Shown: positions 6,501 to 27,838, counted from the stretch's first letter. The stretch: DNA of 50,722 bases from a virus (IMGVR_UViG_3300031992_004563:329798-380519); one strand, 5' to 3'. Made by a program: numbers and translations. The notes: a model not told the origin generated them from the sequence alone.

Positions 6501-7232
6501 CTTATTAGTTTTTGCATCAGAATTCATAATATTTTTAATAGATTCGCCTAAGCAAATTCCATTAGCATTAACTACATTATCAAATACTAATGCAGAACGT
6601 TCTGCTTCTTCTACGGCTTTCATTTCAGCATATTTCTTTTCAGCATATGCATCAATTTCAGCTTTAGCATCTTCTACTTTTTGACGAAGTTTATCTTCTT
6701 CAATTTTACGTTGAATTTCATTAAATTTAGAAGAATTGTCAAATGTAGAAATTTGTTGTGGTTCTAATTGTGCATTTGGATTAGCAATTACAATTGTTAA
6801 TTGTGGTGCAACTGGATCACCGGATTGTTCCAATACATCTACAGCATTAACTAAAATAGCTTTTGATTTAGCATCATTAGCCGCGAGATAATTTGTATAT
6901 GCATCTTCACACGCGCATTTTGCTGCATCATCACAAATACATTCCATTAACTTATAAGTATTAAGTTCTTTACCATAAGTTGCAAGATTTGCATTCATTT
7001 CATTAATAACATTCTTAACTGCTTTGTTTCCAGATACAAAATTTGAAAGGCCATGACCAAATTCTTCATACAACATAAATTCTTTGGTTGCGCCTTCTGC
7101 TAATACTTTTTGATATTCATTTAAATAATGTGATAAACGTTGATTTGAACCAGCGTTTGCCTCAAGCAAAGTATTAACATAAGATTGAATCTTAAAGTTG
7201 TCTAAAACAGCTTTTGTTTCTTTTTTTGCCAT
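3546..7232 (-). CDS. 1228-aa large acidic protein, possible prohead core/scaffold-type structural protein
   Basis: Track ORF 3795..7232 continues through 5 TAG in a Q/P/A repeat to TAA at 3546-3548 (...QQKNESVETSGKISLNEARAAFVKLKAEYVKSEK). Coiled-coil segments and a very acidic C-half. Function is inferred only from composition and context. Confidence 0.7.
3645..3837 (-). repeat. Coding Gln/Pro/Ala low-complexity tandem repeat
   Basis: Units such as CAA-CAA-CCA-GCA, CAA-CCT-CAA-CAA-TAG-GCT and CAA-CAG-GCT; TAG alternates with CAA/CAG at equivalent positions. Confidence 0.9.
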
Positions 7233-8844: not shown

Positions 8845-9312
8845 TTAATATGAATCATCAAAGAATGAATGTTTAATAGTTTCATCTGTTCTAAAATCTA
8901 TATATACAAGTTGAAATTCCCATGATACTTTACGATGTCTTTCTAACCATGGATACAGACCTTCTTCATTTGCATAATCTGCTATTCTATCATAATCATC
9001 TTTATTAATATATATATTTCCCAATTTATCCTGTATACCATATATTTTAACTATACCCCATAATCCAGATCCTAATAATGCATCAAGTTTTTTATTACTT
9101 TTATTTGTTAATAAACTTGGTATTTTATAAGTACCATCAAGTTTTAACCAACCATCTTCAATACCTTTTTTCATTTCTACATATGACATTAATTTATTAC
9201 TAAATATAAGTGTATCTTCAGGATCAATATCCTCGTTCAATGCCTTCTTAACTTCTTTAGCTACTGAAGCCATGATGCTTTCATATAAAGCTTTTTTATT
9301 ATCTTTTTTCAT
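8845..9312 (-). CDS. 155-aa hypothetical protein with MKKDNKKALYESIM...ALNE leader
   Basis: Intact ORF; leader shared with four other genes in the window. Confidence 0.85.
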   Translation of the reverse strand: MKKDNKKALYESIMASVAKEVKKALNEDIDPEDTLIFSNKLMSYVEMKKGIEDGWLKLDGTYKIPSLLTNKSNKKLDALLGSGLWGIVKIYGIQDKLGNIYINKDDYDRIADYANEEGLYPWLERHRKVSWEFQLVYIDFRTDETIKHSFFDDSY

Positions 9313-9329
9313 ATATTTTTTATTATTTT

Positions 9330-10250
9330 TTAACTTACTGCATCAGCAAAATCCTTTGCCATTTGTTTTGCATCATCTAAAGTTTTAGCAGTCCATGCTT
9401 TTCCTTTATATCCGCAATCGCCTTTTTTAATTTTAGAACCAATTCCAAAACCGTAAATTGCTCTATGACTCCATCCATACCATTTTTGCTCTTTTTCTGA
9501 AAAACCAATAGAACCATTATAAACTTTAGAAATTCCATGCTTAGCAAAAAATTTCATAGTTCCTGATGGTTTCCCATCTGAAGGAACTGATGTTACATAA
9601 GCACCAGTGGACTTATCAACATATTCTTTATAATGAAAGCCTGGTCTGGTTTTTGTTTTAAAATTTTCATCAAAGAACTTTTTAGACATTATTCTTTCTT
9701 CATTTAAATATGCATATTGTTCATTTAATGTTTTTTCTGTAGAATTAAAATCAAAATCTTCAAAAACATTTGGCATTCTAGATGCTGCATAATCATGAGC
9801 GATTTCCATATCTCTTGATCTAAAATAATCTTTTTGAGATAAATCATTAGGTGTATATCTCATTAAAGACTATTTAATTGAAGAACCATCTAATGGAATA
9901 GTGTCTTCAGTTTCAAAATCTTGAACATAAACAAATTTAGGAACCTATTCATCACTTCCAGGAGTCCAATATATATATTTAATCATTCCACCATGTTTCT
10001 TTCCATCATATGGACAATACCCAGTAACATAATCACCAACAAAATGTTTAAATGATTTATTCTTATCTTCTGGCCCTGGATCATTTCCTTTTTGACATAA
10101 TGAAAATGATAATGGTTTTATTTCATATGAAAATCCTGAACAATTATAATCCTATGTAGAAGAAAAACCAGCAGTAGCCGCCCAATCTTCATTAAGCGGA
10201 TTCATTATCTAATTAGGATTAACTTTAATTATTTTTGGATTATTATTCAT
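9330..10250 (-). CDS. 306-aa hypothetical protein, several L-N-E motifs
   Basis: ATG 10250 joins ORF 9330..9863 through 4 TAG; contains PLNED, TLNEQ, YLNEE. Confidence 0.75.
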
Positions 10251-10256
10251 AAAAAA

Positions 10257-10514
10257 TTATTTTCTTATTTCCCAATTCACTCCAAATTCTGCCATTTTTC
10301 TTTTAGCAGATTCTAAACCATCTTTAAGACCTACTTTATACCACTATTCTTCTCTTTCAGTTTCAAATGAATACGGCTCAACTACATGCATTTGCTCAAT
10401 TTCATCTGCATCCATTATATATTCGCGTTCTGGAGTATTTTCATTTAATGCCTTTTTAACCTCTCTGGCTACTGATGACATTATTGATTCATATAATTTT
10501 TTCTTCTTTTCCAT
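10257..10514 (-). CDS. 85-aa hypothetical protein with KKLYESIM...KKALNE leader
   Basis: MEKKKKLYESIMSSVAREVKKALNENTPERE...; one TAG; ends TAA 10257; absent from the ORF track. Confidence 0.8.
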
Positions 10515-10516
10515 GA

Positions 10517-11059
10517 TTATTTACTCTCTAATTTGCAAATTCTAAATAGGTATATATATCTATGAACTATCTCTAAGAATCCAGACAATAAATTTCTGCA
10601 TCCTTCATATTCCATATCATCTTTATGAAGTTCAAACCAATTAACTACGCAAACTTTTAATTCATTAATTAATTGAATTGGATCATTTTGGATTGGAAGC
10701 TCAAGTTTTGTTATTTCATCACCATTAAATTGACCAATAACTGATTGGATATTTTCAGCAATAGCATCTTTAAATTCTTCCAATTCATCTCCAAAATCAT
10801 CAATAGTTTTATGATATGACATAGAAAAACTTGCCCAATGAAGTTGTTTAAATTTATCAGCAAATGCCATAATTTTTGCAACAAATATAATATCTTTGGA
10901 AATTTCTTCTTTAGGCTTTCTATATTCACCATCATGAAGATCAACAAGAATCTATTTAACACCTCTTACATATTCAGCTTGTTCAGGTGTTATTTGTTGT
11001 GTAATAGCCTTTACAGCTTCTTTATTTAATAATTGGTCTTTTGATATAATATATCCCAT
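10517..11059 (-). CDS. Ferritin/Dps-like four-helix-bundle protein, 180 aa
   Basis: ATG 11059 extends ORF 10517..10870 through one TAG. The KQLHW......H...DDF..ELEEF.D.IAE pattern matches the Dps/ferritin-like metal-site helices seen in T4-like phages. Confidence 0.55.
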
Positions 11060-11121
11060 TTTAGACAATAATAACTTTATTTTTATTATTTATTATTAAA
11101 ATAATGATTAGAAATTTACAT

Positions 11122-11220
11122 AAAAAATGGGCAAGGTTTGATAGCCGTAATTGACAATGGTTTCTCTGGCATTATAAAATTGACCAAGAACTTGAGTGGC
11201 TATTTCTCTTACCCTAAAAA
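11122..11220 (-). ncRNA. Candidate small structured RNA (not a tRNA)
   Basis: GC-richer island in an AT-rich divergent intergenic region. Terminal stem GGGTAAG/CTTGCCC, inner stem ATAGCC/GGCTAT, T-run after the stem and GATAAATA motif upstream (11238-11245) on the minus strand. Confidence 0.3.
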
Positions 11221-11527
11221 CTTTTAATTAGTTTTGATATTTATCTAAGAAAAAACAAAATGCGTATAAATAACATATAATATTAAATATGTTAGACATA
11301 TCATAAATTTTGTATAAATTCATATTTTAAGACAATAGTTATAAAATATTTTTAGATTTTTTATAGAGTGGTTAAGCCGGTATAATTAAGATGAATCTAT
11401 TTTATATTAACGTTTTAAAGAATTATTTTAAGATTGATGGAGTTGTTAAGCAGGCATGAAGATTAACTAATTTCATTTAAAGCTAATTATCTTAGTATGA
11501 ATATTATAAAAACAAATTTATAGAGAT

Positions 11528-12952
11528 ATGAAAAAAGAAACTATTGAAAAATTATTTAAAAGATATATTAGCATTTTTGATGATGTTGTTAATTAGACAA
11601 CAGGCACACATTTAGATCAAACTATAGTAAATGAAATAAATTCTGAGGTTGATTTATTATTTAAAGAATATGAACAAATGAGCAATTTAACAGAATTTAA
11701 TTCATTTTCTGAAAAAATTCAAAATATTATTAATAAAGTTCTTAAAGAATCTAAACTACTTAATAAAGCATTTATAGAAAAGGAATTACAAAAAAGATTT
11801 AATCTATTTGAAAGTAATCCATTTGTTTATATTGAAAATGAAGTCAATAACACTATAAACAAAATTATTCCAAATACAAATGGTGATTACTATATTCCTG
11901 CAAATCCTTATTTAGAATCTATAACACGTAAAGGCTATAATATTATATTTAGATCTAATAAAATTAAAGAACATATAGATAAAGTAAGTGCAAAATATAA
12001 AACTGAAAGGGATTTAATAATTAAGGAAAATGAACAATTATATGCAGTATCAGTAACAAAAGCATTACAAGAACTTAATGATTATCCTATTCAATTCTGT
12101 AAAGAAACATTTGAAAAATATTTCTATGATAAATGGGATAGTAAATTATTAGTATTGCCAAACAGCATAAAAAATTATATTCTTATAGATGCTATTAATC
12201 TCGGATTAAAACCTCATACAGAAGAATATGAGAAAGCGGTAGATTTAATATTTACATCTAAAGAACAATTTAGACATAGCATTGCAACTACTAAATGGGA
12301 TTATTTAAATGATCTTAAATATAATTTTATTAATAAAAATTTGGTATCCAGAGTAGAAATTATTAATTTATTCATACAAAGTTGGGAATCATTAATTTTT
12401 AAAAATGAAAATTTATCAAAAAACATTAAAAATGATTTGTTAAGAAAATATAGTATTATATTTAATAACATTGATAAAATTTCAGATACATCTATTATTA
12501 GATTTTATGTGTTTATGAATAATTTTAATGGTGGTGGGTCCTATAAATTATTAGACAGATTTGTAGAATCACTTGCAGATAATTCATATTTAACAATGAT
12601 TGCTAACTTAGTAAATATAGAATTAACACTATTAATAAATGAATTAGAAACTATTAAATTTGATAAAGAACAAGGCGGATTTATTTCAAATGAAAAGAAG
12701 TATTCTAATATAATTAATGAATATTATAAAATATTTGGTGATACTAAATCTTCTAATGATAAAGAAAACTTTTTCGGGGTATCTGATGATAAATCATTAA
12801 CTAAAGAAGAAAATGAACAAGTAACTAAACAATTAATTAAAACTAATATTTTATATTCATTAGTTGAAACATTTAATAAACACTATAAATTTAAATATAT
12901 GTTTGAAAATATTAAATCAAAAGTCAAAAATATTATAAAAATTAAAAAGTAA
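11528..12952 (+). CDS. 474-aa hypothetical protein
   Basis: ATG 11528 is in frame with ORF 11678..12952 through one TAG; TATAAATA at 11265-11272 upstream. Confidence 0.75.
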
Positions 12953-12957
12953 AATTT

Positions 12958-13431
12958 ATGGATATTACAGGAATTTTTAGTGAAGCTTTTTGGTACATTG
13001 CTCCTATCCTTGTTACAATGACTACTTTCTTAGCAGGTCTTTTTAATCAAGGCGTAGTAGAAAAATTTGTTCCAGAACAACATCGCGGTTGGTTAAAACA
13101 ACTTGTTGCTTGGGTATTTGGTGCAGGTCTTTCTGTAGCAGCATGGGGACTTAAGGTTATTACATTTGGTAATCCAGTATGGCTTGGTGTAATTGCACTT
13201 TGTGTTGTAGTTGGTTTATCTTCAAATGGTGTTTATGATGTACAATTCATTCGTAATTGGATTGATACATGGTTTAAACCGGCAGCTGCACTTTTAAATT
13301 TAAATAAAGAAGATGCAGAAACAATTGAAAAAGATTTTGTAGAAGCAGTTGCAACAAATAAGTCAGTTGAAGAAAAACCACTCAAAGTTAAACGAGTAAG
13401 AAAAACAGAGCCAGAAAATACCAAGGCTTAA
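12958..13431 (+). CDS. Multi-pass membrane protein, holin-like
   Basis: 3-4 hydrophobic segments, a VGLSSNGVYD motif as in small phage holins, and a charged C-tail. Confidence 0.5.
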   Translation: MDITGIFSEAFWYIAPILVTMTTFLAGLFNQGVVEKFVPEQHRGWLKQLVAWVFGAGLSVAAWGLKVITFGNPVWLGVIALCVVVGLSSNGVYDVQFIRNWIDTWFKPAAALLNLNKEDAETIEKDFVEAVATNKSVEEKPLKVKRVRKTEPENTKA

Positions 13432-13437
13432 ATTAAT

Positions 13438-13467
13438 AAAAGGAATGGTAAATAAACCATTCCTTTT
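13438..13467. terminator. Bidirectional intrinsic terminator
   Basis: AAAAGGAATGG-taaataaa-CCATTCCTTTT between convergent genes. Confidence 0.8.
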
Positions 13468-13532
13468 ATTTTGCATACATGCATGCATGTATACATGTAT
13501 ATTATATTATAATATTGTTTACACGTGTAGAG

Positions 13533-14240
13533 TTATTCTATTTCTTTAAGTTTATCTAAAACATGTGGAATAATTGGATTCCTAACACAATCTTCAGCTG
13601 TGAATTCAACAGTTCCAATTTTTTCATCATCTTTAAATATATTTAATGCTTTCTATAATATAGAAGTTTTTCTATTTTTAAGATCTATCTAATCTACATC
13701 TCCCATTATAACATATTTGCTATTCTTACCAATACGAGTAATGATTGATTTAAAAACTGACATTGTTAAATTTTGACATTCATCTAATATAACAAATTGG
13801 TTATCTATATTAATTCCTCGTATATATGCTAATGGCTGAACTTTTATTTTTCCTTCAGTTAATAATTTCTTTCTCATTGATTCACCAATTAACTTATCGA
13901 TATTTCCAGTGTAACTTAATATAAAAGGCTCGAGTTTCTCTTGAGCGTTTCCTGGAAGATAACCAACGTCCTCTCCTGGAAGAGGAGTAACAGATTTAAC
14001 TAATGTGATTCCATCAAATTGATTTTTTTCAAGATACTTAAGGCCTTGCCATAAAGCTAAATATGTTTTTCCACAACCAGCTGGGCCTACACATATTGAA
14101 ATTTCTGATGAATTAATAGAATTTAAAAATTCCTTCTGTCGAGAATTCATACATTTAATCTGTTTAACATGTAATTTCTTTTCATCCTCAACATACTCAA
14201 GCTACTGCTTGGTGTTTTTAATTTTCTTAGTTCTACTCAT
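13533..14240 (-). CDS. phoH: PhoH-like ATPase, 235 aa
   Basis: GPAGCGKT Walker A, YIRGINIDN, ILDECQN and GDVD[TAG]ID (family motif GDxxQxD). Read through 3 TAG from ATG 14240 to TAA 13533. Confidence 0.92.
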
Positions 14241-14407
14241 ACTTAATATAAAAATTTTAATATTAATTGATTGTCACTACAATCAATTTTAATTAATAAT
14301 TCTAAATTCTTTATATTTATTTTATTTGGCATTTTATTTGGCCAAATTACCATTTCTTGTGCGAAAAAACTATATTTATGTGAATAAATATAATATATAA
14401 AACAAAT

Positions 14408-14601
14408 AAAACCACGTAAGAACAAATAGGTTCTTGCAACTGGTTTTAGATGTTTAGATTTAATGATTTTTATTTTAAGTTTTAAGTTTATTTAAGTATT
14501 AAGTTTTTTAGTTATTTTAAATTTTTAAGCATTAAACATTTTTAAGATTATTTAGTAAAATTATTAGATCGAAATTTATAAAAATTAAATTATATTTTAC
14601 A
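14408..14601 (+). promoter_or_regulatory. gp32 5' leader: hairpin plus unstructured T-rich tract, putative autogenous translational operator
   Basis: Stem-loop 14408-14447, then about 150 nt with only 4 C and about 6 TTAAG repeats. Analogous to the T4 gene 32 operator. Confidence 0.45.
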
Positions 14602-15765
14602 ATGCAAACGTTAGATGATTTTTTTAACATGTCAAAACCAGTTGTTCAAGAACAACAATCAGCTCCATTGACGGAGTTTAGACCTAACCCTAAAAAGGGT
14701 CAAAATGGAGTATTTGAAGCAGTAGTTCGCTTCCTTCCAAATCCAAAGGATCCAGCAAACAAATCTATTATTACAAAGTATTATGCTTATATTGAGCATC
14801 CTACTACACAAGTAAAGAAAAATATTGATTGCCCATCTACTGTAGGACAACCTGATCCAATTCAAAATACTTTCTTTGCTCTTCGTAATGCTGCAAATCC
14901 TGTTCTTCAAGAAAATTCAAAACAATTTTCTCGTAAACAACAATCAGTATCACTTATTCAAGTAATTTCTTGTAAATCTGATCCAAGTCTTGTAAATAAG
15001 ATTTTGGTTTGGAAATATGGTGTTAAGATTTTGGAAAAACTTAATCAAGAAATGAATCCACCTATGGGTGAAGGACATAATCCATTTAATCTTTTCACTG
15101 GACGTCCATTTAGTGTTCAAGTAAAAGAGGTTAGTGGTTTCCCAAATTATGATGCATGTCAATTTTTTGATTTACCAGTTGAGCAATCAGGTATGCGTAT
15201 CACCGTAAATAATGCACAAGGCCAACCACAAGTTGCTGTAGTAACAACTGCAACAATTGCAACTGAACAAGGAAAGGCAGCAGTATTTAATTATCTTAAG
15301 GAAAACGCACCTGATACTGATAAATATGAATTCCATCCTTGGACAACAGAAGATACAGAATTTGTAAATGAATGTATTCGCATTTATTCAAATCCTCAAG
15401 CTTCTATCCAAGCAAGAGCTGCCGCAGCAAATCCTGGTATGACACAAGTTGCTACTCAGCCAATGGCTGCACAAACAGCTGCTCAACCAGTACAAGTTCA
15501 ACAACCTATGCCAATGGCAGGTGATGGTTTTAATACTTTAGGTGTTGGTAATATTGGTGCAATGCCTCAAGCAGCTCCACAAATTCCACAAATTCCTACA
15601 ATGGGTTTAGATAATGCAGGTGTTGCTCCAGCAACTTCAGCAGGATTCCAACCTACAAATATTCCTGATGTAGATGCATTATTAAATCAAGGCCAAGCTG
15701 AAAAGAAAGAAGCTCCAGCAATGCCTTTAGATTTAAATGATGTATTGAGTGGACAAATATTATAA
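14602..15765 (+). CDS. gp32: Single-stranded DNA-binding protein (T4 gp32-like)
   Basis: AVVRFLP, IDCPST.G..DPI, ILVWKYG.KI.EK and F.PNYD...F motifs; low-complexity C-tail. Confidence 0.88.
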   Translation: MQTLDDFFNMSKPVVQEQQSAPLTEFRPNPKKGQNGVFEAVVRFLPNPKDPANKSIITKYYAYIEHPTTQVKKNIDCPSTVGQPDPIQNTFFALRNAANPVLQENSKQFSRKQQSVSLIQVISCKSDPSLVNKILVWKYGVKILEKLNQEMNPPMGEGHNPFNLFTGRPFSVQVKEVSGFPNYDACQFFDLPVEQSGMRITVNNAQGQPQVAVVTTATIATEQGKAAVFNYLKENAPDTDKYEFHPWTTEDTEFVNECIRIYSNPQASIQARAAAANPGMTQVATQPMAAQTAAQPVQVQQPMPMAGDGFNTLGVGNIGAMPQAAPQIPQIPTMGLDNAGVAPATSAGFQPTNIPDVDALLNQGQAEKKEAPAMPLDLNDVLSGQIL

Positions 15766-15807
15766 TTATGATAATTAAACTATCATAAGTAAATCCTCCT
15801 ATTTAAG

Positions 15808-15843
15808 AATGGTTCTAGATTTTTTCTAGAACCATTTATTTTT
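15808..15843 (+). terminator. Intrinsic terminator
   Basis: AATGGTTCTAGA-ttttt-TCTAGAACCATT followed by a T-rich tail. Confidence 0.8.
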
Positions 15844-15876
15844 AATAAATATATTGAAAATATATGTTTATATTAT

Positions 15877-17832
15877 ATGATAAATTTTATTCCTGATGAA
15901 GAAATTAGAAATGATTTAAAAATATTAAATGGTGCACCAGATGTTCAAACAAAACGTGAAATTGGTGCAAAATATGGGTTATCTCCAAAAGAATGTACAC
16001 AATGGAAGCATGTTGCACAAAAAATATATGAATATTTAAGAACTGTTAGAAATTAGAAAACAGACTTCACAAAATAGGATGTTTCTGATTTTTATCATTT
16101 AACAGATGATGCTCAAAAATATGATAAAATATATCCATTTTTATTATTAGAATCAAGAGCATTTATTGAATATCTATTAAATCATATATACGCATATTTA
16201 ATTGCTAAAGGAGTTAAACAATATACATTAGATCATATTGACACTGTTAGATTAACCCGTGACATATATGGCAGCGCTGCAAATTTATTTCATCTTGAAA
16301 GATACAAATCAATTAAAAAGTATTATGATGAGCATTATGGCCATAAATAGTCATAGGCTCAAAGTAATAACAAATTATCTATTGAATTATAGGGGTTATT
16401 CATAGAAGAAACATATGAACAAAGAATGCAGCTCGAGCAGATTTTAGAAAATTTTATTAATGAATGTTATGATACTTATGTTTATGGAAGTTCTGAATAT
16501 ATAAAAATTTATAAATTAATGAATTCATATATTGAAGAGCGTGATAAATTAAGTGGTGGAAAATATCGTCCAAGATTACATGAATAGTTGCCGCCTGAAG
16601 TTATTAAGCTTAATGGATATATTAATGAATTACATTTATTATTATATACATATAGATATTTTTCACCAGATTGTTCTGCAACAACGCATATAACAAAAGA
16701 AAATAGAATAGAAAAATCAATTGAATATTTTAATAAAGTTTTTGATAAAGCTCTTAATAAAAGTGTTATTAATAAAATTATTTCATCAAATGATTTAACT
16801 GATATAAATGATATAAAAATTAGTGAATTATAGAAATCTGATTTTGGATATTATTTTATTATTTCATATAATGATAATAAAATATATCTTAATTTTGGTT
16901 TGCAACATGAAAATCAAAATATTGATAACATGGATGATCTTATTAAAAATTCAAGACATGTGCAACATTTAAATTACACAACATTAATATACGAAATAAA
17001 AGTTACATCCAAATTATATAAGAAAAAAATAAATGAATCATTTGATTTTAATAGTTTAAATGAGAATGAAATTCATTTAAATATTGATGATTTTAATTTT
17101 AATGATGAAAATCATAACGCAGATTCAAATATCATTGATGATGAAGATGTCATTAAAACACATATAGATTTTTGGAATTAGTTTGTTGATTTAGGTCTTC
17201 CTTCAGGCACATTATGGTGCAAATATAATTTAGGTGCAAAAATTGAGAAAATTGATTATAAAGATTGGCTGGGTGATTATGTTCAATGGGGTGATATAAT
17301 TCCAAATACTGCCAAAAAAACAGGATATTCATATGTATGGACAACATACAAACATTCAAGAGGAGCAACAAATATGTTAAAAAAATATATTACTGATACA
17401 GATTATAGCGCAAAAAATCCAGATAATAATTATCATCCATACTTAGATAATTTAACAAATCTTCTTCCAGAAGATGACATTGCAACATAGGAACTTGGCG
17501 AATATTTTCATATTCCAACTAAAGAATAGTATGATGAATTACTAAAAAATACAGAAACTTCATGGAAAATCAATTACCAAGGAGTTAAATGGCTAGATGG
17601 CAGAATTTTTAAAAGTAAAATAAATGGTAATGAAATATTTTTCCCGGCAGCAGGTGTTAGAAAAGAATTAAATTTAAATGGGTCTGGTGATATAGGTGAA
17701 TATTGGACATCATCATTAGATGAAGCATGTAATTCATTAGCTCATGTCTTTCATTTTAAAGATGGAAGCTATTTTATAGGAACTGATCCACGAGCACTTG
17801 GACATAATATAAGACCAGTATTTAATAAATAA
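15877..17832 (+). CDS. 651-aa protein with C-terminal Fib_succ_major-like (C-type-lectin-fold) domain
   Basis: One frame, ATG 15877 to TAA 17832, with 10 TAG, joining track ORFs 16588..16833 and 16900..17181. C-terminal domain has VDLGLPSGTLWCKYNLGA, FFPAAG, YWTSS and NIRPV. Confidence 0.82.
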
Positions 17833-17833
17833 T

Positions 17834-18655
17834 ATGAATATGAAAAATTATAATAAACATATATTAGAAGCTGTTCATAAAGGTATATAGTTGGCATTAG
17901 ATGACTATAATGATAATGAAGATATTATTTATACATCAACAATGCCAGATATTGCTGGAAATGATAATATGATAGAAGATACTATAGATTTTTATGTGAA
18001 TAAAGTTGATTTAGGACTTCCATCTAGAACATTATGGTGCAAATATAATGTTGGTGTTAATATGCATGAATTAAATGATGCTGAAGATTGGGGTGGCAAT
18101 TATTATGCATGGGGCGAAATATACCCAAAAAGATCATATGGATTTTTTAATTATGAATATTCTAAGTATAATGAAAATCAAACCGAAGACGATTTAGATG
18201 TATTAACTAAATATTGTAGTGATTTCAATTTTAGTCATGATATGACAACAGACAATTTAGTTGAATTGGAAAGAAGTGATATGCCAATAAAATTAAAATT
18301 ACGTAAAGGTGACAATATAAACAAATATTCAATGCCGACTTATGATCAATATAATGAATTAATAAAATATACAACATCTAAATATGTTAAAAATTATAAT
18401 GGAATTATTGGATTAAATGGAAAATTATTCACTAGTAAAATAAACAAAAAATCTATATTTTTCCCAGCTGTTGGATATATGAATGATAATGAACTTCATT
18501 ATGATGCAATGCAGGGTGGTTATTGGACATCTACTGTAGTTAAAGGCATGGATGTATGTGCATGGACATTTTAGATACATAAAAAATCAGATACATTAAT
18601 AGAAAATAGTAGAGTTGTTGGATTTCCAATACGATTAATATATAATCAAAAATAA
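17834..18655 (+). CDS. Leader + Fib_succ_major-like domain protein, 273 aa
   Basis: MNMKNYNKHILEAVHKGI*LALDD leader; VDLGLPSRTLWCKYNVG, FFPAVG, YWTST, FPIRL; 2 TAG. Confidence 0.85.
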
Positions 18656-18715
18656 ACAAAAATAAAAAACAAAGTTCTCTTCCAATATTATAATAATTAA
18701 CCAAATTATTTAAAA

Positions 18716-19873
18716 ATGGAAGAGAATTTTAATTTTAATTTAGATACATCAAGCTTAACAGCTGCAAATATATCTCAAGAACAATTTGAGGATGGAATTC
18801 AAGAAAAAGTTCAAATAATTCTTGATAAAACATTTCCAGAAACAAAACAAAAAAGAGTCATTAGAAAAGAATTAACAGGCATAAAATTTGCTTGTCCAAT
18901 TTGTCATGATTCTGCATATGATCCAAATAAAAAACGTGGTCATATTGCATTTAGAGGAAAACATGCAGGTTTATACACATGTTTTAATAACTGTGGGTCA
19001 ATGCCACTTAAAAGATTTTTTAAATATTTTGGAACAGATTTATCTCTTACAGATATTAATTACATTTCAACTAATTATACAAATCCTGAAGCAAATTCTC
19101 AAGAATTCACAAATAATTTAACATCAAATGTTATTAATAAAGAGGAAGCGTATAAATGGGCTATTGATAGAAATTATATTAGAGATATTCTTGGATTACT
19201 TGATATTGGACGAGAAACCACGCCAACAGCATGGAATTATTTGATTAATAGATGTCAATATACAAATCATAATAGATTCTTATATAGTGACAAATATAAT
19301 CAAATTCTTATTTTGAATTTAGTTGATGATAGAGTTCTTGGAATGCAAATTAGAAATTTATCACCAAAACCAGGACAAGCTAAATATTTGACAATGAATA
19401 TTGAAAAAATGAGAGCTGCAATGCTTGGTGATAAAAATCCAGTTCCTGAAACTATTTCAAAATTATCATGTGTATTTAATATATTTAATGTTGATTTTTC
19501 AAAAACATCATTTAAACCAATATTTGTTACTGAGGGTCCATTTGATGCATTTCTTCTTCCAAATGCAATAGCATTATCCGGTGCAGGAAAAAACTTTGCA
19601 ATGCAATTTCCATTTTGGTATGTTTTTGATAGTGATGATACTGGTAATGAACATTCAATTGAGAAATTAAGACAAGGCTATAATGTTTTCTTATGGAAAA
19701 AATTCTTAAATGATTATAAAATTCCAGATATTAATCCTTATATATCTTCTGGTAATAAACGAAAATGGGATATTACTGATGTTAAAAAGTATTTTAGAGA
19801 TTTAAAAATGAATCCAAAAATATTTTGGAGCCAATATTTCTCAAACAATATGTTAGACGCATTAAATATTTAA
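18716..19873 (+). CDS. gp61: DNA primase (T4 gp61-like)
   Basis: Zn-binding FACPICHDS...CFNNCG; TOPRIM motifs VTEGPFDA and FDSDDTG. Confidence 0.9.
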   Translation: MEENFNFNLDTSSLTAANISQEQFEDGIQEKVQIILDKTFPETKQKRVIRKELTGIKFACPICHDSAYDPNKKRGHIAFRGKHAGLYTCFNNCGSMPLKRFFKYFGTDLSLTDINYISTNYTNPEANSQEFTNNLTSNVINKEEAYKWAIDRNYIRDILGLLDIGRETTPTAWNYLINRCQYTNHNRFLYSDKYNQILILNLVDDRVLGMQIRNLSPKPGQAKYLTMNIEKMRAAMLGDKNPVPETISKLSCVFNIFNVDFSKTSFKPIFVTEGPFDAFLLPNAIALSGAGKNFAMQFPFWYVFDSDDTGNEHSIEKLRQGYNVFLWKKFLNDYKIPDINPYISSGNKRKWDITDVKKYFRDLKMNPKIFWSQYFSNNMLDALNI

Positions 19874-19908
19874 ATGGAACAAACAAAAATGGTTGTTCCA
19901 TTTATTTT
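19872..19908 (+). terminator. Intrinsic terminator
   Basis: AAATGGAACAA...TTGTTCCATTT followed by a T-run. Confidence 0.7.
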
Positions 19909-19924
19909 TTGTATTTAATAATAA

Positions 19925-19932
19925 AATAAATA
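19925..19932 (+). promoter_or_regulatory. Putative late promoter (AATAAATA, T4 TATAAATA-like) upstream of the tail sheath gene
   Basis: The same WATAAATA motif precedes most TAG-containing transcription units (see findings). Confidence 0.5.
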
Positions 19933-20024
19933 ATAAAAGTATATTTGCATTGTAGTGTTAAATGTATTTTTGGTAAACGAATAACTAAATAAATATAAAA
20001 ATAAAAAATTATAAATTTAATAAT

Positions 20025-23000
20025 ATGGGTAAAATTAGTTTAGATTTAAATTCTTTTAAAGCTGCCGGAATTTATACTCTAGAAGTTGACAACACTGCCA
20101 GAATGGCAGATGCCGATGTTGATTCTTTACGCATGTTAGTTGGTTTCTCTAATAAAGGGCCTTTCAACCGTCCTGTTTTATTGGAAGAAGATGCTGACAG
20201 ACTTCGTGTATTCGGTGATATTGATACTAAATTAGAGCATAAAGGATGTTTCTTTAACAGAATGTTAAGAACCTTATTGTCAAATGGCCCTGTTATTGCA
20301 CTTAACTTATTGGATGTATCTACAGCCAATTCTGGTCCTGACCAAGTCAATCTTGCCGTATTATCAATGGATGCTGCTACAGCCAATCCAGCTGTTAGTG
20401 ACCCAGAAAAATATGGTGAATATGACTATTTAGCAGATTCTATAGATAGAATTATTTATGGAACAGTTAAAGGTGATAACCTTCCTTATGTTGGTAAAGC
20501 ACCATATGCTAGTGTATTTAATAGATCACGTTTCTGGGTTCCAGATAAAGAATTGTTAACAGCCGAAGCTGCTCGTAATTTAGGAAAATCAGAAAATGTT
20601 TCATAGTTCTCTTTTGAAACTGCAAACTTACTTAACTTTGCAAATGTTGGTACTGAGGAAATTTCTATCTTAGTATTTAAACCGGCTAGCATGCCAGGTT
20701 ATGAAGTAACTGCTGAGTCTTGGTTTGGCGGTAAAGAAAATATTCCATTTGGTTGGATTCGTCCATATGATAATATTTCTGATTACTTCCTTCAAGTAGT
20801 TTGTGTTAAGGGTAACTGGACAAATTATCCAGTTCTTTCTACAGACCCAGTATGGAAAGGCTACTTCGATAAAAAAGGTATTAAGAAGAATAGAGTTAAC
20901 CAATTCATGAGTGCAGAAGGCATTACGGTTTTAGGTTCATGGACAGGATGTATTATTCCTGACTTTACTGATAAACAAGGCAATATGCTTAACCTTGAAA
21001 AGAAAGTTAATGCCGCTACTGAAAGAACAGGTTTGTTAATGTCATTCAATAATGATTTAGCAAATGTATTAACATATGACTATTCAGGTGCAAATGCAAC
21101 TTCTAGCGATCCAGATTCTGGATGTTGGGGATTAGACATTGATAGCAATGGTGAAGTTGAAGATTTAAATGATAAAGCTGAATACATTGTTGATATGGTT
21201 GGACATGGTGCATTTGTTCAAAAAGATGAATAGAAACAAAAGTGGGATTTTATTAGTCGCGCATGTACATTTGTAGATGTTAGTTCACATACTTATGCAT
21301 GGAGTAATTCTAGAAAGAAATATACTGAAGCAAAAGTTAATTTATTTGGATTAATTAAAGATACATCTGTTGAAGATGTTTCAATATATACAAGTAATGC
21401 TATTCCTGGTCCTGATAATACTAGCGTTGCAGATCCTGCTGCAGTTTGTCATGGCAAATATATTCCAGCCGTAAATGATTTCATTAAGCCTGGTCCACTC
21501 GATACAAGTGTTAAACTTACTAAAGCTAATGCTGGTGAATTAGTAAATCATGTATATTATGAAATATCACAGTCTGGAACAATTGGAAATGCACGTAATT
21601 TATATTTAGATGTTGAATATGTAAATATTAGTGAAAATGTTGTAGATACAAGTGCATACTTTATTTTAGATAATTCTACATTCTGTTTAAATTATACATT
21701 AAACACTTCAACATTTGGAACAGAAGATACTTACATTGAATCTATTGGTGTATGTCCAAATTTATTTGTATTAGATCAATCTGCACAAGCAATTGCTCCA
21801 TATTATGGTATTAACTTCTTATCATATAACTATGTTGCAAATGCATCTGATGGTGTTAATGAAACTATTTCATCTGTTAAATATTTCAGTGATCCAACTC
21901 TCTGGGTTGATGAAATACCAGTATCTGATGATACAAAGAATATATTCATTATTACAGATGCTTCACAATGGACAGATGCTAAAGTTAAACTTGGTGATTA
22001 TGTTCATAATATCACATATAATAATGTTCCTGGTGAAACTGAAGAATATCAACTTATTCCAGGTTTGTCAAGAGTAATTAGAAAACAATTTGTTCAAGTT
22101 AACAATGGTGAAATTACTTACCAAGGTAAAACATTTAAATATGATGGCGCATATGATCAAGCATCATAGAAATTCTGTTTAGTTGTATGTACATCACCAG
22201 TTCTTATTGAACAAGTTGATAATAAAGATGTTATTACACGTCAATTACCAATTTCAGATGATAAAATTTCTGGTTCTTTAAGATTCATTCCTATGAAGGG
22301 TCTTACAATTACTTCTCGTCACCGTCCAGGTTATAAAGAAGATGGTCAACCAGATATTGAAAAAGGTATTGAAAAAGTATATGGTGTATTAAATGACGAA
22401 GGCATCAAACGTGGATTGATGAATGATGCAATGGTTAACTTCCGTTATATCATTGACTCAATGTCCTATGGTTTAGATGCAGAACTTGGTGGTAAACGCT
22501 GGTTATCAATTACTGCGATGGATCGTCAAAAATGTACTGCAATTCTTAACTTACCATCAGCAAAACAATTTGCTGTAAGTTCAAATCCATATTTCTGCAA
22601 TACATATAATCCTGGACAAGAAGCTCGCCCATCAATGAATACTAAATATATTCCTCTTGGTGGTAACACTGAAATGGGTTCAACAGTTGTATTTAGTCTT
22701 CCTTCAGAAGAAGATGGTGCTAAATTTACTGCATGCTTCTGGCCACACTTATTATACAAAGAAAATGGTAAAGAAATTGTAGTTCCACCAGCAGCTGATG
22801 TAGCTAACGTATTGAATCGTAAATTCAATGGTCTTAATGATCCATATGCAATTAGTGCAAACCAAAATGGTATCTTATCAAGTAGATATCTTGCAGGTCT
22901 TGAATTCTTAGCCGATAAAACAGATCGTGAATATCTTGAACCATTTGGTGTTAATACAATCATTAAAGATCAAGGTTCTATAATGATTTATGGTAACCAA

Positions 23001-23339
23001 ACAGCTTATCAAGCAATGAAGTCAGACTTTAACAAACTTCATGTACGTGAAAATCTTAATACAGCTGAGATTGAATGTGAGAAAGTTCTTAAGAAATATA
23101 ACTTCTTATATAACACTCCTGCAACTCGTGCTAATATTGTTCAACAACTTACACCAATTCTTCAAGCAATGCAAATTGCAGGTGCATTAGTTAAATATGA
23201 CATTATTTGTGATGAAACTAATAACACCCCTGAAGTTATCGAAGCCGATACCTGTGTAGTTGAGATCAATCTTTGGATGAACCACGGTATGGAGAAAATT
23301 GTACAAGTTTATACACTTCAACGTTTGTCAGATCAATAA
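20025..23339 (+). CDS. gp18: Tail sheath protein (gp18-like), 1104 aa
   Basis: One frame through TAG at 20604, 21231 and 22167. N-terminal AAGIYTLEVD and LVGFSNKGPFNRPV; C-terminal PPAADVA, LEPFGVNTI, IYGNQT, LHVRE and YDIICDETNNTPEVI. Confidence 0.92.
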
Positions 23340-23356
23340 TTCTAACAAACATAATA

Positions 23357-23391
23357 AAAAAAGAGAATCAATGAAAATTGGTTCTCTTTTT
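23357..23391 (+). terminator. Intrinsic terminator, copy 1 of a 29-bp direct repeat
   Basis: AAAAGAGAATCAA-tgaaaa-TTGGTTCTCTTTTT. Confidence 0.8.
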
Positions 23392-23402
23392 ATTTTTTAA
23401 TT

Positions 23403-23460
23403 AACTTCTATTTTTTCATTTAAATAAAAAATATTAATTTTGCATTGAATTTTAAAATAA
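23403..23460 (+). promoter_or_regulatory. Putative early promoter, Bacteroidetes primary-sigma type
   Basis: TAATTTTG at 23435-23442 matches the TAnnTTTG -7 element; the whole ~58-bp block is conserved with 47000-47058. Confidence 0.65.
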
Positions 23461-23469
23461 GTTTTTATT

Positions 23470-23886
23470 ATGAAAAAAGAACAATTAGATTTAAATCAAT
23501 TAAAACCTAAAATTTTTAGTGATAAAGTAGCTGTTGTTAATATCCATAAAAGAGTTGGTAAACATAAATTTGTTGATATAGGGTATGGTTATTTTCCAGT
23601 AGTGGTGTTATATGTCGATGATGGACCTGATATGGGTGATTGCACAACAATTAGTGTTGTTGTTACTGGAAATTCTATTAAACCTTTATTTGATGTTATA
23701 CGACAAATTGAAAAAGAATATGGTAAGGTTGATGTAATTTCAAGTAGTATGGGCGATTGGTCATATCATCAATGGATATATAGAGATAATAAAGGAGGTT
23801 TTTCAAATAAAGGTCCAAAAAAGTCTGATGGCCAGCGTAAACTTAAATATTTACAAGCAGAACATCTTAATAACACAATAAAATAA
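23470..23886 (+). CDS. Hypothetical protein (early)
   Basis: Intact TAG-free ORF right after the early promoter. Confidence 0.75.
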   Translation: MKKEQLDLNQLKPKIFSDKVAVVNIHKRVGKHKFVDIGYGYFPVVVLYVDDGPDMGDCTTISVVVTGNSIKPLFDVIRQIEKEYGKVDVISSSMGDWSYHQWIYRDNKGGFSNKGPKKSDGQRKLKYLQAEHLNNTIK

Positions 23887-23893
23887 TTAAATT

Positions 23894-24754
23894 ATGAAAG
23901 ATGTCAATTCAAAACAATTAGTAACATTTAGTTATCATGGAGAGCCTATGCGTAAAATGACAAAAGCTCAAATGAAAAAATATATTGAGCATCGAAACGC
24001 ATGTGAAGAAATATATAAAGGCCTATTAACTACTCATGTTTTTGATGATGCAAATTCTGATAAAGAAAAACTTGATGTTTTAATAGATATGTGTTGTGGA
24101 ATTCAAACTGAGATTTGCCACATGGCAGATAGCATTAAAGAATATGCAAAAAGTGCCAAAGAATATTCAAAAACAATGACACCACAAATGTTTAGAGACG
24201 CAATGCAATTTGTTAAAAATCATTCACCAAAAACACAAGATGGTAAATCTACAGATGAAAAGAAAACAGAAGATAAATTTAAAGTTGATGTTTTTAAACA
24301 TAGCTTTAAACGAAATTTATGTCAAACCTTTTTATCATTTGGTAAAATTACTGTCCCTGATGAAAAATCTATTGAACTTCAATTAATTCCATCTGTACAA
24401 ACAATTGAAAATAAAGAGCTTGAAAAAGATCTAAAAATGTGTGCAGGTTGGAGAGATATTATGGATAGCCAATTTTATCCTGAATATCGATTATACGCAA
24501 TGGCAGCTGAACATCTTTCTCATGGCGATTTGGATTATGCACGTTTTAAAACACTTGTAAATTATCATCATTATGGAGCGTTAGATCCCAAAAATGAATT
24601 TTTTAGAAATTCATATTCAAAACCATTAATTCAATTTATGGATGCATATAAATTATGTGAAAAATACGGGTATGAAGATTTTTTCAGTGAAGTTAAAAAT
24701 TATTTCTATGAAATGTTTATGAAAGAACAAGAAAATGAAAGTGAATGTGCATAA
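23894..24754 (+). CDS. Hypothetical protein (early)
   Basis: Intact 286-aa TAG-free ORF. Confidence 0.8.
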   Translation: MKDVNSKQLVTFSYHGEPMRKMTKAQMKKYIEHRNACEEIYKGLLTTHVFDDANSDKEKLDVLIDMCCGIQTEICHMADSIKEYAKSAKEYSKTMTPQMFRDAMQFVKNHSPKTQDGKSTDEKKTEDKFKVDVFKHSFKRNLCQTFLSFGKITVPDEKSIELQLIPSVQTIENKELEKDLKMCAGWRDIMDSQFYPEYRLYAMAAEHLSHGDLDYARFKTLVNYHHYGALDPKNEFFRNSYSKPLIQFMDAYKLCEKYGYEDFFSEVKNYFYEMFMKEQENESECA

Positions 24755-24777
24755 ACATTTAAATTGAAATTGTATAG

Positions 24778-24806
24778 GAGAATCAATGAAAATTGGTTCT
24801 CTTTTT
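24778..24806 (+). terminator. Intrinsic terminator, copy 2 of the 29-bp direct repeat
   Basis: GAGAATCAATGAAAATTGGTTCTCTTTTT, identical to 23363-23391. Confidence 0.8.
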
Positions 24807-24869
24807 GATTTATAAAAACTTAATTATGTATTAAACATATAATATATAATAAAAATATGTGTTTGAAAC

Positions 24870-25991
24870 ATGGGAATAAAGGAAATAGACGTTAAGGCAT
24901 CACACATTTTAATGATTTCAGATATTCATTTTGGTGCTCATGTTAATTCAGAAGAGTGGCAAGAGAATATGAAAAATTACTTCTATGGGTTCTTTATCCC
25001 AAAGATAAAGGAATTAAAAACAACCCTAAAAGAAGATGAGAGAGTGATTCTTGTTAACCTCGGTGATACTTTTAATGACAGAAAAGCAATTGATATTAAT
25101 GTATATAATTTAGCAATTGATATATTTGAAGATATAGCTAAAGAAATTGATGTATATACATTAAATGGTAATCATGATTTAGCTAAAAAGACTAATGAAG
25201 GCAATACTTCTCTTAGAGCAATTCAATATATTCCTAATGTGACTTTAATTACAGATCCAACTTTATTGAATATTAATTATGAAGGCGGGAAACATACTAA
25301 GATTATTGCAGTTCCATTTTTAGGTGATCATTCTCAAGAAACTAAATATTTAATGGAAAATGCAAAGGCTAAATATGCATTTATGCATACAGATTTAGCA
25401 GCAATGAAATATGATAATGGAATGCTTATTACAGAAGGCGTTAATACTGATGTATTTAGTGGTATTGTATATTCAGGACATATTCATAAACGCCAAGAAA
25501 CAAAAAAATGTATATATGTAGGTTCTCCATATCATATTAGTAAAAGTGATATTGGAAATCAAAAAGGATTGTATTTACTTAATCTTAAAACTAATAAACA
25601 TGAATTTATTGAAAATCATTATAGTCCAATATATCATAGTTTATTAATGGAAAAATATATTGAAATGTCTATTGGAGAACGACAAGAATTTCTAAACAAC
25701 AATTATAATTATATTATCATTAAAGAAGAAAATATTCCAGAATATAAAAAGAAATTTGATATTTATAATTTAGGAATTGGAACAACTGCAAAATTTGTCA
25801 AACCTGTTATTAATAAACAAACTCTAAGTGTTAATGTTGATGAGAATATAGAATATAAAGAAAAAACAATATCAGAATTAATAAATGAATCTATTAATGA
25901 TTTAGATGTTGCAGAAGAATTCAAATTACAATTAATAAAAACAAGTGATCAATATTTGAAAGAAGCTGAAGCAGAAATTGCAAATGACTAA
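24870..25991 (+). CDS. gp47: Recombination endonuclease subunit (gp47/SbcD/Mre11-like)
   Basis: SDIHFG, LGDTF, GNHD, SGHIH and YVGSPY metallophosphoesterase motifs. Confidence 0.92.
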   Translation: MGIKEIDVKASHILMISDIHFGAHVNSEEWQENMKNYFYGFFIPKIKELKTTLKEDERVILVNLGDTFNDRKAIDINVYNLAIDIFEDIAKEIDVYTLNGNHDLAKKTNEGNTSLRAIQYIPNVTLITDPTLLNINYEGGKHTKIIAVPFLGDHSQETKYLMENAKAKYAFMHTDLAAMKYDNGMLITEGVNTDVFSGIVYSGHIHKRQETKKCIYVGSPYHISKSDIGNQKGLYLLNLKTNKHEFIENHYSPIYHSLLMEKYIEMSIGERQEFLNNNYNYIIIKEENIPEYKKKFDIYNLGIGTTAKFVKPVINKQTLSVNVDENIEYKEKTISELINESINDLDVAEEFKLQLIKTSDQYLKEAEAEIAND

Positions 25992-25994
25992 TGA

Positions 25995-26029
25995 AAAATA
26001 AAGGAACCATTAATTTGGTTCCTTATTTT
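25995..26029. terminator. Bidirectional intrinsic terminator
   Basis: AAAATAAAGGAACCA...TGGTTCCTTATTTT. Confidence 0.75.
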
Positions 26030-26042
26030 AACTTAAAAAATT

Positions 26043-26462
26043 TTATTTTAATTCAATATTTAAATAATTTGCAACTTTAATTAAAAATTTATTTGCGGCT
26101 GTAAGAGCATTTATCATTTTATTTAAATCAATATTATTATAAGCCACTCCATTTTCCCACTATATATTTATGCTTTTTATATTTTTTCTATAATTTGTAT
26201 AATCAATATTAATTGTAATTCCAGCCTAATATGCATTTGAATTATAAATAGTATCAACCTTATATCCAACACAATCATATATACCATTAATTACTATATC
26301 CTATTTTACAAGCATAAAATTATCATCGCTAAATACTTTTTTCTTAGGTCTATAATACGTTATACGATCATCACTATAATTTTCATTTAACGTTTTCTTT
26401 ACTTCTCTAGCAACAGAAGTCATGATGCTTTCATATAAAGCTTTTTTGTTATCTTTTTTCAT
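26043..26462 (-). CDS. 139-aa hypothetical protein with MKKDNKK leader
   Basis: MKKDNKKALYESIMTSVAREVKKTLNE...; 3 TAG; TAA at 26043; TATAAATA at 26471-26478 upstream; absent from the ORF track. Confidence 0.82.
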
Positions 26463-26483
26463 ATATCATTTATTTATAATTTT

Positions 26484-27422
26484 TTACCATGTTGTTTTTT
26501 TACCAGACTTAATCATATCAATAAAATATTGTTTATCTTCTCTTGGGCAAGGTTGATTAACTGCATCCGTATATCCACAATGCCAAGCCATCCACTGAAC
26601 TAATTCATTAAACTATTGTTTAGTATTATAATGGATATGAAGTTTATATGAATATCTTCCTTCTTCAATTTTTACATTCATTTTATGATTAACCAACCAT
26701 TTAACATGATTTTCAGCTGCTGCCATTCCATCACTAAATTCACCTGGTTCATAATTATCTTTTGAATATATGAAATCAGTTGTAAAATCGCCTTCCATTG
26801 GTTCTTCTCTAGTAATTTTTTCACCGGTTTTTCTCATTATAAGATTAACATCCATTTGAATTCTTCCTTCTGGTGTGTCTTTCCATAAACCTGTAGCATC
26901 AAGCGCAGCTCTAATTGCTTCTGGAGTTCTTTCCATTTCACCATTATTAATCTTTAATATAATATCTAATTTTGCTGGTTGTTTTGGTGTCCAGAATTTT
27001 TTAGGATCCATATATTGACGAGCAATTCTAATACGTTCTGTATCTTCTTTAGCTTCATTTACAGAATCATTTACAGAAATTTTATTAACTTTTTGAATTG
27101 CAATTCTTGGCGCTTGGCCTAATGAATTATCAACATCTAATACATTTGCATTAACTAATAGAGCAATAACTTTAACAACTTCTTCATGTGTTTTGCATGT
27201 AATTCTTACAGACCCTGCACCATAATTATCAAATGCTGGTAATTTGCTAGATAATTTATCTAATACAGATTTATTCATACCATCGCATCTAACTAAATAT
27301 ACTTCACCTGCAATTTCTTGTTTTTTAGGCTCAATATCATCAACTTCATTTAAAGATTGCTTAACTTGTTTTGCAACCTATTCCATTATCTTATTATATA
27401 AATCTTTATTATCTTTTTTCAT
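26484..27422 (-). CDS. 312-aa hypothetical protein with MKKDNK leader variant
   Basis: MKKDNKDLYNKIME*VAKQVKQSLNE...; extends ORF 26613..27278 at both ends through TAG to TAA 26484. Confidence 0.8.
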
Positions 27423-27439
27423 ATTACTTTCATTTAATT

Positions 27440-27745
27440 TTATGCAGGCTCTATCATATCTTTTTCGCCTGGGCCGTACCATTTATCTATAAGTAATTCA
27501 ACACCATCTCGTGGTCCAATTATTTCAACTTGGCTATAGCCATGAATTTTTTCAAATGAAACTTTGCAACCAAATTCGCCAGCATCTTTAATGAATTCAG
27601 CAGTATCAGATGGTTCATCTTCAACAAATTCTCCACAATATTTAACCATTGGAGATGCTTCGCCTTCATTTAAAGCCTTTTTAACTTCTTTAGCGACAGT
27701 TTGCATTATGCTTTCATATAATGCTTTTTTGTTATCTTTTTTCAT
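27440..27745 (-). CDS. 101-aa hypothetical protein with MKKDNKK leader
   Basis: MKKDNKKALYESIMQTVAKEVKKALNEGEASP... Confidence 0.85.
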   Translation of the reverse strand: MKKDNKKALYESIMQTVAKEVKKALNEGEASPMVKYCGEFVEDEPSDTAEFIKDAGEFGCKVSFEKIHGYSQVEIIGPRDGVELLIDKWYGPGEKDMIEPA

Positions 27746-27838
27746 ATCTATAAAATAAACACTTTATTTTTATTATTTATTTTAGAAAACAATGCATCAT
27801 TTTTTAATATAATATTTAATAAAATATGCAGAATAATT

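Follow-up and report, generated by a model that had tools for sequence, protein, structure and literature searches.

In bacteriophage T4, the internal proteins IPI, IPII, IPIII and Alt carry a capsid-targeting sequence (CTS) that is removed by the prohead protease gp21 (Mullaney and Black 1996; PMC9026906, PMC3012670). Proteases of the gp21 family cleave after Glu in L/I-X-E (PMC9026906) and remove N-terminal propeptides of 7-65 residues, including the 10-residue CTS that T4's internal proteins bear (PMC9026906, PMC5694885). When Asp occupies P1 in T4, processing is blocked whereas targeting is not (PMC9026906). The giant phages phiKZ, 201phi2-1 and SPN3US also encode a gp21-related protease that cuts after Glu, and some of their paralogues have identical N-termini that are thought to be CTS-like (PMC5694885, PMC10052503). 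Here we describe an N-terminal leader, called leader 2, that recurs on otherwise unrelated proteins in a window of 50,722 nucleotides (nt) at the end of a 380,519-bp virus record (IMGVR_UViG_3300031992_004563:329798-380519; 28% G+C). Positions are counted from the first letter of the window unless prefixed G000, which denotes coordinates in the full record. The window belongs, as judged from its genes, to a Lak-like megaphage of the sheep gut or rumen, and leader 2 is probably a capsid-targeting propeptide, cleavable and Lak-specific, that does the job of the T4 CTS. Human and animal guts commonly contain Lak-type megaphages, but none has ever been grown in culture, and most of their genes lack an assigned function. 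We found no description of leader 2 in the literature.

Leader 2 has the consensus MKKDNKKALYESIMxSVAKEVKKALNE and is 24-27 amino acids (aa) long overall, 25-27 aa in the window. With TAG read as Gln, all five window genes listed in an initial annotation of this DNA are present, on the minus strand and with the starts it gave. Gene A (8845-9312; 155 aa) carries its leader in codons 1-27 (9232-9312; MKKDNKKALYESIMASVAKEVKKALNE), followed by a 128-aa orphan cargo. Gene B (10257-10514; 85 aa; leader 10440-10514) has one in-frame TAG at 10344-10346 and a 60-aa acidic cargo, and gene C (26043-26462; 139 aa; leader 26382-26462) has three, at 26301-26303, 26226-26228 and 26160-26162. Gene D (26484-27422; 312 aa) begins with a divergent leader (27345-27422; MKKDNKDLYNKIMEQVAKQVKQSLNE), has TAGs at 27378-27380 (codon 15) and 26613-26615, and encodes a two-domain cargo, while gene E (27440-27745; 101 aa; leader 27665-27745) ends in a 74-aa acidic cargo. 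Three of the five thus need TAG as a sense codon to be whole. In a six-frame genome scan with a leader hidden Markov model (HMM), the kind of check the initial annotation had recommended, the five window leaders score E 1e-13 to 1e-17. The scan returned 13 strong copies in the 380-kb record (E 1e-11 to 1e-17), the five in the window and eight elsewhere, so the family is larger than first noted; divergent copies also lie at G000 154419, 2657 and 182101.

The leader ends sharply. Its last three residues are (L/I)-N-E in 12 of the 13 copies and L-L-E in one, and both the alignment and the nucleotide identity, which drops from 74% in the leader core to 36% in the 30 nt after the Glu, bear out the claim that the 25-27-aa leader closes in (A/T/S)LNE with similarity stopping right after it. 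The domains that follow are unrelated, as had been stated: in an all-against-all BLASTP of the 13 cargos of the genome the best E was 0.048. The leader core is indeed amphipathic, with a hydrophobic moment of 0.42 that only 1.3% of shuffles reach and a net charge of +3. In the AlphaFold2 (AF2) model of gene D it forms a separate helix (residues 5-25), followed by a low-confidence linker (19-38), with a second such linker at 114-127. Searches of leader 2 against PHROG gave no match, and against Pfam only a sub-threshold match to DUF5759. This last candidate was rejected: it covers 6 of the 13 leaders, always below the cut-off, and since it also matches in six control genomes we regard it as a chance match to a Lys/Glu-rich helix.

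Selection on the leader acts on the peptide and not on the DNA, because synonymous differences are abundant, Ser codons switch, the upstream DNA is near background and the residue pattern is kept in distant relatives. Over the 19-codon core, 426 of the codon differences counted in the 78 copy pairs are synonymous and 363 are non-synonymous. Both AGY and TCN codons are used for Ser, Leu is written as TTA, CTA, CTT or TTG, and Ala and Val each have three codons in use. Upstream of the ATG, identity over 30 nt is 43%, near background, with no conserved upstream DNA. The leaders of Lak-A, Lak-B and Lak-C have many residues changed (VSKTVKRKLNE versus VAKEVKKALNE) and keep the pattern. The copies at 9312, 26462 and 27745 are nearly identical at their start, as reported, with 1-3 differences in the first 42 nt.

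Beyond this record, leader 2 is specific to one group of phages. Among GenBank phages (50,697 records) it occurs only in the 15 Lak records, in all 15 of them and at 107 places, with 10-12 copies each in Lak-A1, Lak-B2 and Lak-C1; these GenBank records are unannotated. A search of 1.84 billion cluster-representative proteins with the leader profile gave 1059 representatives at E <= 1e-3 and 152 at E <= 1e-10. The statistics that follow come from the best 150 of the 1059, a ranking that favours conserved leaders, so that the conservation figures hold partly by construction, which is not true of the N-terminal position and the sharp boundary. The leader lies at the N-terminus in about 140 of these 150. 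Column entropy is 0-0.3 bit at P3-P1 and rises to 3.2-3.9 bits from P1' on; P3, P2 and P1 are L, N and E in 99-100% (149 metagenomic matches), and in 78% one of S, N, G, D and E occupies P1'. Cargos of 40 aa or more number 117 and represent 91 families, and Pfam recognized almost no domains among the cargos of these 150. One methyltransferase-domain protein was present among the 150. For the genome's own cargos, Pfam and PHROG returned nothing except phrog_5070/7964, of unknown function, on the cargo of the gene at G000 189741.

Gene calling with the standard code ends proteins at TAG, which is why many metagenomic matches are short. The metagenomic protein P0003, for example, is gene C cut at codon 54 (53 aa). 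In homologues of gene B (P0047 and P0052) the alignment continues across the TAG position. Gene E has a homologue, P0072, with 76% identity in the cargo part. In some relatives (P0001, P0002 and P0044) a single protein holds the leader two or three times, or has a half-leader (GKEVKKSLNE|N) in its interior; the C-terminal half of the leader may accordingly be a portable cleavage cassette.

A protease suited to this boundary is encoded in the same genome. A Peptidase_S77 domain (T4 gp21; PF03420) at G000 226089-226466 scores 59.7 bits, above the cut-off (E 5e-17), and opens a 593-aa protein (G000 226011-227792, plus strand) that is conserved in 126 relatives; its protease domain spans about residues 22-180. 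Its AF2 model passes from the protease fold through a long acidic low-confidence region to a confident all-helical C-terminal domain (residues 389-591), a predicted layout that corresponds to a protease-scaffold fusion. With nine [LIV]NE motifs, the protein has more of them for its length than any other of the 462 called proteins (Poisson 1.6e-6); KKLNE|G lies at residue 21 and LMLNE|DEF at the C-terminus. Among 24 homologues that are 48-90% identical, the sites at E21, E180, E193 and E479 are kept in 21-24, and E236 is present as [LIV]xE in all 24. In the AF2 model, the protease fold is flanked by low-confidence segments, where autoprocessing would be expected, and E21, E180 and E236 are located in them.

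The same motif marks the major capsid protein (G000 328203-330074), which contains ...QMINE|AW... and ...AHNTAKSLNE|AAPV within its first 53 residues. At the equivalent places, the capsid proteins of Lak-A, Lak-B and Lak-C have ...KAIYE|SW... and ...AHNTAKLNE|DA. In a search aimed at mapping the protein onto T4 gp23, neither phmmer nor a three-sequence profile found a PDB chain, so the LNE site has as its sole reference point the Pfam Gp23 match, whose start is near residue 111. The leader end KKALNE is the short motif that also closes the capsid N-terminal segment and punctuates the scaffold. The initial annotation had further proposed a protease site at LYE^S within the leader. LYE is invariant in most copies and resembles KAIYE|SW of the Lak capsid proteins, which makes a second cut plausible, but the subfamily of the gene at 27422 has LYN, so the site is not general.

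Some other proteins carry the motif. A 133-aa acidic protein (G000 273657-274058, plus strand) has three [LIV]NE in its first 40 residues (…KPLNEGEMLQEDVLNEDDVNEA…) and resembles the small prohead-core proteins of the T4 gp67/gp68 type. MKRNLNE|N begins a 651-aa protein (G000 287594-289549, plus strand), and ...HYLNE|Y occurs at residues 37-39 of a 1228-aa protein (3546-7232, minus strand); both proteins are possible further substrates of the head protease.

These features parallel the T4 system. In both, an N-terminal tag sits on unrelated, fast-evolving proteins and ends in hydrophobic-X-Glu, an S77 protease of the gp21 family is encoded, the motif recurs in scaffold and capsid propeptides, and the cargo genes are polymorphic between relatives. 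Unlike the T4 CTS, leader 2 almost always has Asn at P2 and holds a second LYE; a genome has it on 13 genes or more, metagenomes contain over 1000 cargo clusters, the cargos are mostly acidic, and its function is predicted from sequence. The sites of phiKZ and SPN3US are A/S/G-X-E (PMC5694885), whereas P3 of leader 2 is Leu or Ile and not small. The propeptides of phiKZ, 201phi2-1 and SPN3US are often longer than 100 aa, and their shared N-termini are found on paralogues and not on unrelated proteins. Encapsulin cargo-loading peptides and phage scaffold-binding helices are alike by design, with no claim of homology, in that a short helix sends a protein inside an HK97-fold shell; these peptides are usually C-terminal and are not removed.

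The assignment to the Lak group, and with it the genetic code, is supported by several features. The tail-sheath protein is 50-55% identical to the sheaths of the Prevotella phages Lak-A1, Lak-B2 and Lak-C1, and the window stretch is present in sheep, goat and bovine gut metagenome runs. The sheath gene (20025-23339, plus strand) forms a single frame of 1104 codons with in-frame TAGs at 20604, 21231 and 22167 and a TAA stop; standard-code open reading frame lists break it into three or four pieces. In gene D, which has 24 full-length orthologues, the TAG at codon 270 stands opposite a Gln shared by all of 11 aligned orthologues and by nearly all of the 24, and the TAG at codon 15, inside the leader, stands opposite mostly Gln. 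Because the sheath frame holds three TAGs and those of gene D align with Gln, we read TAG as Gln in this phage, as already described for Lak phages (bioRxiv 10.1101/2021.08.26.457843). ARAGORN found no tRNA(CUA) suppressor in the 380-kb record; because the record is only ~76% complete, the suppressor may sit in the missing part. About 30 tRNA genes and a transfer-messenger RNA gene cluster at G000 46069-78310 and 269450-269849, with an odd tRNA-like call at 46548-46641.

The recoding also bears on when the leader genes are expressed. An in-frame TAG occurs in 7 of the 13 leader-2 genes, in two of them inside the leader, and these seven are therefore made only when TAG is decoded. The late-promoter-like motif AATAAATA lies at 27774-27781 (minus strand), 28 nt upstream of the gene E ATG, and heads the gene string E-D-C. 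In a crude gene set it is found within 60 nt upstream of 42 of 170 TAG-containing genes versus 14 of 292 TAG-free genes, and it also precedes the portal, protease and sheath genes. One leader-2 gene begins 21 nt behind the protease-scaffold gene. A T4-late-promoter-like motif, TATAAATA, is located at 26471-26478 (minus strand), 8 nt upstream of the gene C ATG. Exact-match contigs in sheep-gut RNA libraries cover 26111-26467, 26491-26732 and 26565-27756, which is compatible with transcription, although DNA carry-over is possible; RNA depth derived from contigs cannot rank genes and was not used for timing. One of the RNA-library contigs has its end 4 nt downstream of the TATAAATA motif that precedes gene C.

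The cargos are exchanged between relatives. Genes E, D and C sit in a variable slot between an SbcD/gp47-like nuclease gene (24870-25991, plus strand; phrog_100, E 1.4e-47) and an SbcC/gp46-like gene (27839-29509, plus strand; phrog_77, E 6.7e-75), and relatives share both borders. There, the orthologue of the 312-aa protein is kept and the neighbouring leader-2 cargos differ: one relative contig has leader-2 genes of 87 and 269 aa in the slot, and another has genes of 167 and 136 aa with nothing on the far side. The proposed spread by recombination is thus borne out as cassette swapping, but recent gene conversion is unsupported because the copies differ at many synonymous sites. DNA-run joints that would delete 26135-27764 were not used, as they rest on 22-nt sides at 90% likeness.

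A second leader family, much the larger one in this record, extends this picture. Leader 1 (MKNYKQILEAVNRGIQLALDD...) occurs at about 27 places in the 380-kb record, for example at 1357 (plus strand), 17813-18652 (plus strand) and G000 229906 (plus strand), and about half of its cargos are lectin-fold paralogues (VDLGLPSGTLW...). Like leader 2, it is a constant N-terminus on unrelated cargos, but its sequence is different and its conserved part is longer and runs into an acidic linker. Its start is presumably far closer to the T4 CTS than leader 2 is. The lectin-fold cargo, which the two families have in common, follows leader 1 in this genome, but other phages have it behind leader 2 (P0017 and P0030; the latter matches the genome's paralogues at E 1e-33). 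Since either leader can precede this cargo, we see the leaders as address modules that can be exchanged for one another, with the cargos as cassettes.

Together, these data suggest the following sequence of events. The leader-2 genes would be late genes, translated while TAG is read as Gln. Residues ~8-25, the basic amphipathic helix, would dock the protein onto the prohead core, which would be built by the protease-scaffold polyprotein and the capsid protein N-terminal segment. The T4 gp21-type serine protease would then cut after the Glu of (L/I)-N-E, possibly also after L-Y-E, and free the cargo inside the head. There it would remain with the DNA, probably to be delivered into a Prevotella-type host. 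Cargos could be exchanged as cassettes behind the leader because, in this proposal, only the leader is needed for loading. A complex prediction for the leader (11-row alignment) with protease-scaffold residues 400-593 gave no answer (score 0.00) and speaks neither for nor against docking. The initial annotation had likewise proposed a head-targeting propeptide removed by a protease. The S77 protease, the shared motif, the exchange of cargos and the TAG recoding agree with that proposal, while targeting, cleavage and virion location are steps that we infer.

Several observations weigh against a CTS-like role. For Lak-type phages, virion location and cleavage are predictions from sequence. At 24-27 aa versus 10, leader 2 is more than twice as long as the T4 CTS, and it is not known to resemble that CTS in sequence. 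Most cargos are acidic, unlike the basic T4 internal proteins, and a lectin-type cargo fits an external binding role better. The enrichment of TAG in leader genes is not significant against length-matched genes. Leader conservation in the top-150 list is partly a product of the profile ranking. In the cargos of the same 150 proteins, [LIV]NE is not depleted (30 observed versus 22 expected), so that [LIV]NE alone would be an insufficient cleavage signal.

If leader 2 is a loading tag, it marks proteins that travel in the particle and enter the host with the DNA. In this genome they would come from 13 genes or more, and public metagenomes would add over 1000 protein clusters; these proteins would be the first actors in infection and likely counter-defence proteins. 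The T4 principle of a short tag and a Glu-specific protease would have been re-invented with a different, longer tag. Such a tag would also be a simple handle for packaging foreign proteins in these capsids, and the rule [LIV]-N-E|small or acidic residue would predict head maturation cuts in the Lak clade.

Of the alternatives, the one that survives best treats the leader as a permanent docking or assembly tag that tethers small domains to a common hub (the capsid exterior, the fibres, or another structure or chaperone), with the cargos displayed or used in the cell. A conserved N-terminal anchor with a variable C-terminal domain is the usual design of phage receptor-binding proteins, and one type of cargo is the C-type-lectin-like binding domain of P0017 and P0030. 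The length of the leader, beyond that of the T4 CTS (PMC9026906), can be counted on the same side. However, the conserved block stops precisely at (L/I)-N-E, the motif in which the protease-scaffold protein is rich and with which the capsid N-terminal segment closes. Most cargos are 60-300-aa acidic orphans that lack fibre or spike features, and known anchors, at about 100 aa or more, are folded domains instead of a single helix. We consider a permanent tag unlikely.

A broader reading holds that leaders 1 and 2 are two address systems that together load about 40 or more proteins per genome into the head, leader 2 being a copy of the first segment of the capsid propeptide. The cargos would enter by imitating the grip of the capsid protein on the scaffold, and the two leaders would sort them by place, time or copy number. 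On the capsid side, the pattern to compare with the leader is MK..NxKxV..YES...AK...KA(I/L)xE|. Comparison of the leader with the capsid N-terminus by hhalign gave P 0.0028 and a probability of 11%. In an HMM shuffle test, this phage's capsid protein scored 7/3000, and the result for the Lak-A capsid protein was not significant. Derivation of the leader from the capsid N-terminus is accordingly kept as a weak lead, and the two-address reading as a whole seems quite unlikely to us. If it were true, the more than 1000 leader-2 cargo clusters would form a catalogue of the injected effectors of gut and rumen megaphages.

Cleavage could also serve expendable components of the prohead core, like T4 gp67/gp68, which would help to build or size a very large head and then leave it after degradation. 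In T4, the core proteins are cleaved and their fragments leave the head (PMC9026906). Small size and strong acidity (net charge -22 to -28) mark several leader-2 proteins, and one leader-2 gene directly follows the protease-scaffold gene. The cargos of this genome, however, contain a single internal [LIV]NE in 2278 residues, against 4 expected, which indicates that they are not built for shredding. Their extreme diversity and slot-wise replacement in close relatives also fit accessory or arms-race proteins better, making the expendable-core explanation improbable.

A leader for some other pathway, such as export or a precursor leader cut by a different peptidase in the style of bacteriocins or ribosomally synthesized and post-translationally modified peptides, is very improbable. 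Peptide precursors, too, combine a conserved leader with a hypervariable C-terminal part, but in this leader a hydrophobic core, a lipobox and a double-glycine motif are all absent. The cargos have folded domains and lengths of up to 366 aa, and no dedicated processing or export genes were seen next to the leader genes.

Close to untenable, finally, is a shared 5' end that acts as nucleic acid (a mobile promoter, ribosome-binding site or translation-start cassette, or an RNA structure) with the peptide incidental: AAA-rich starts can favour translation initiation and three window copies are near-identical over their first 42 nt, but the synonymous differences at conserved residues, the AGY/TCN Ser switches and the unconserved upstream DNA led us to reject such a promoter or ribosome-binding-site cassette, conservation extends as far as codon 27 and breaks off at a codon boundary, and the Lak-A, Lak-B and Lak-C leaders differ in sequence and keep the residue pattern.

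Under the preferred reading, a cleavable capsid-targeting propeptide, gene D may be processed more than once. An internal SVNE at aa 120-123 (27054-27065, minus strand), within an invariant NDSVNE, lies in the disordered linker between the two domains and is a candidate internal protease site. Foldseek of the gene D AF2 model against the PDB gave no match at E <= 0.001. For gene A, neither Pfam nor PHROG returned a match, and a search of the ESM Atlas with the 155-aa protein yielded nothing usable.

Between leader genes B and A lies a 306-aa gene (9330-10250, minus strand) with four in-frame TAGs and no leader 2. It has no PHROG match, and as its N-terminus reads ...NPLNE|DW, its product may be another processed protein. 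Directly upstream of gene B, a 117-aa gene (10517-10870, minus strand) shows a weak match to phrog_858 ('starvation-inducible transcriptional regulator', E 1.2e-4).

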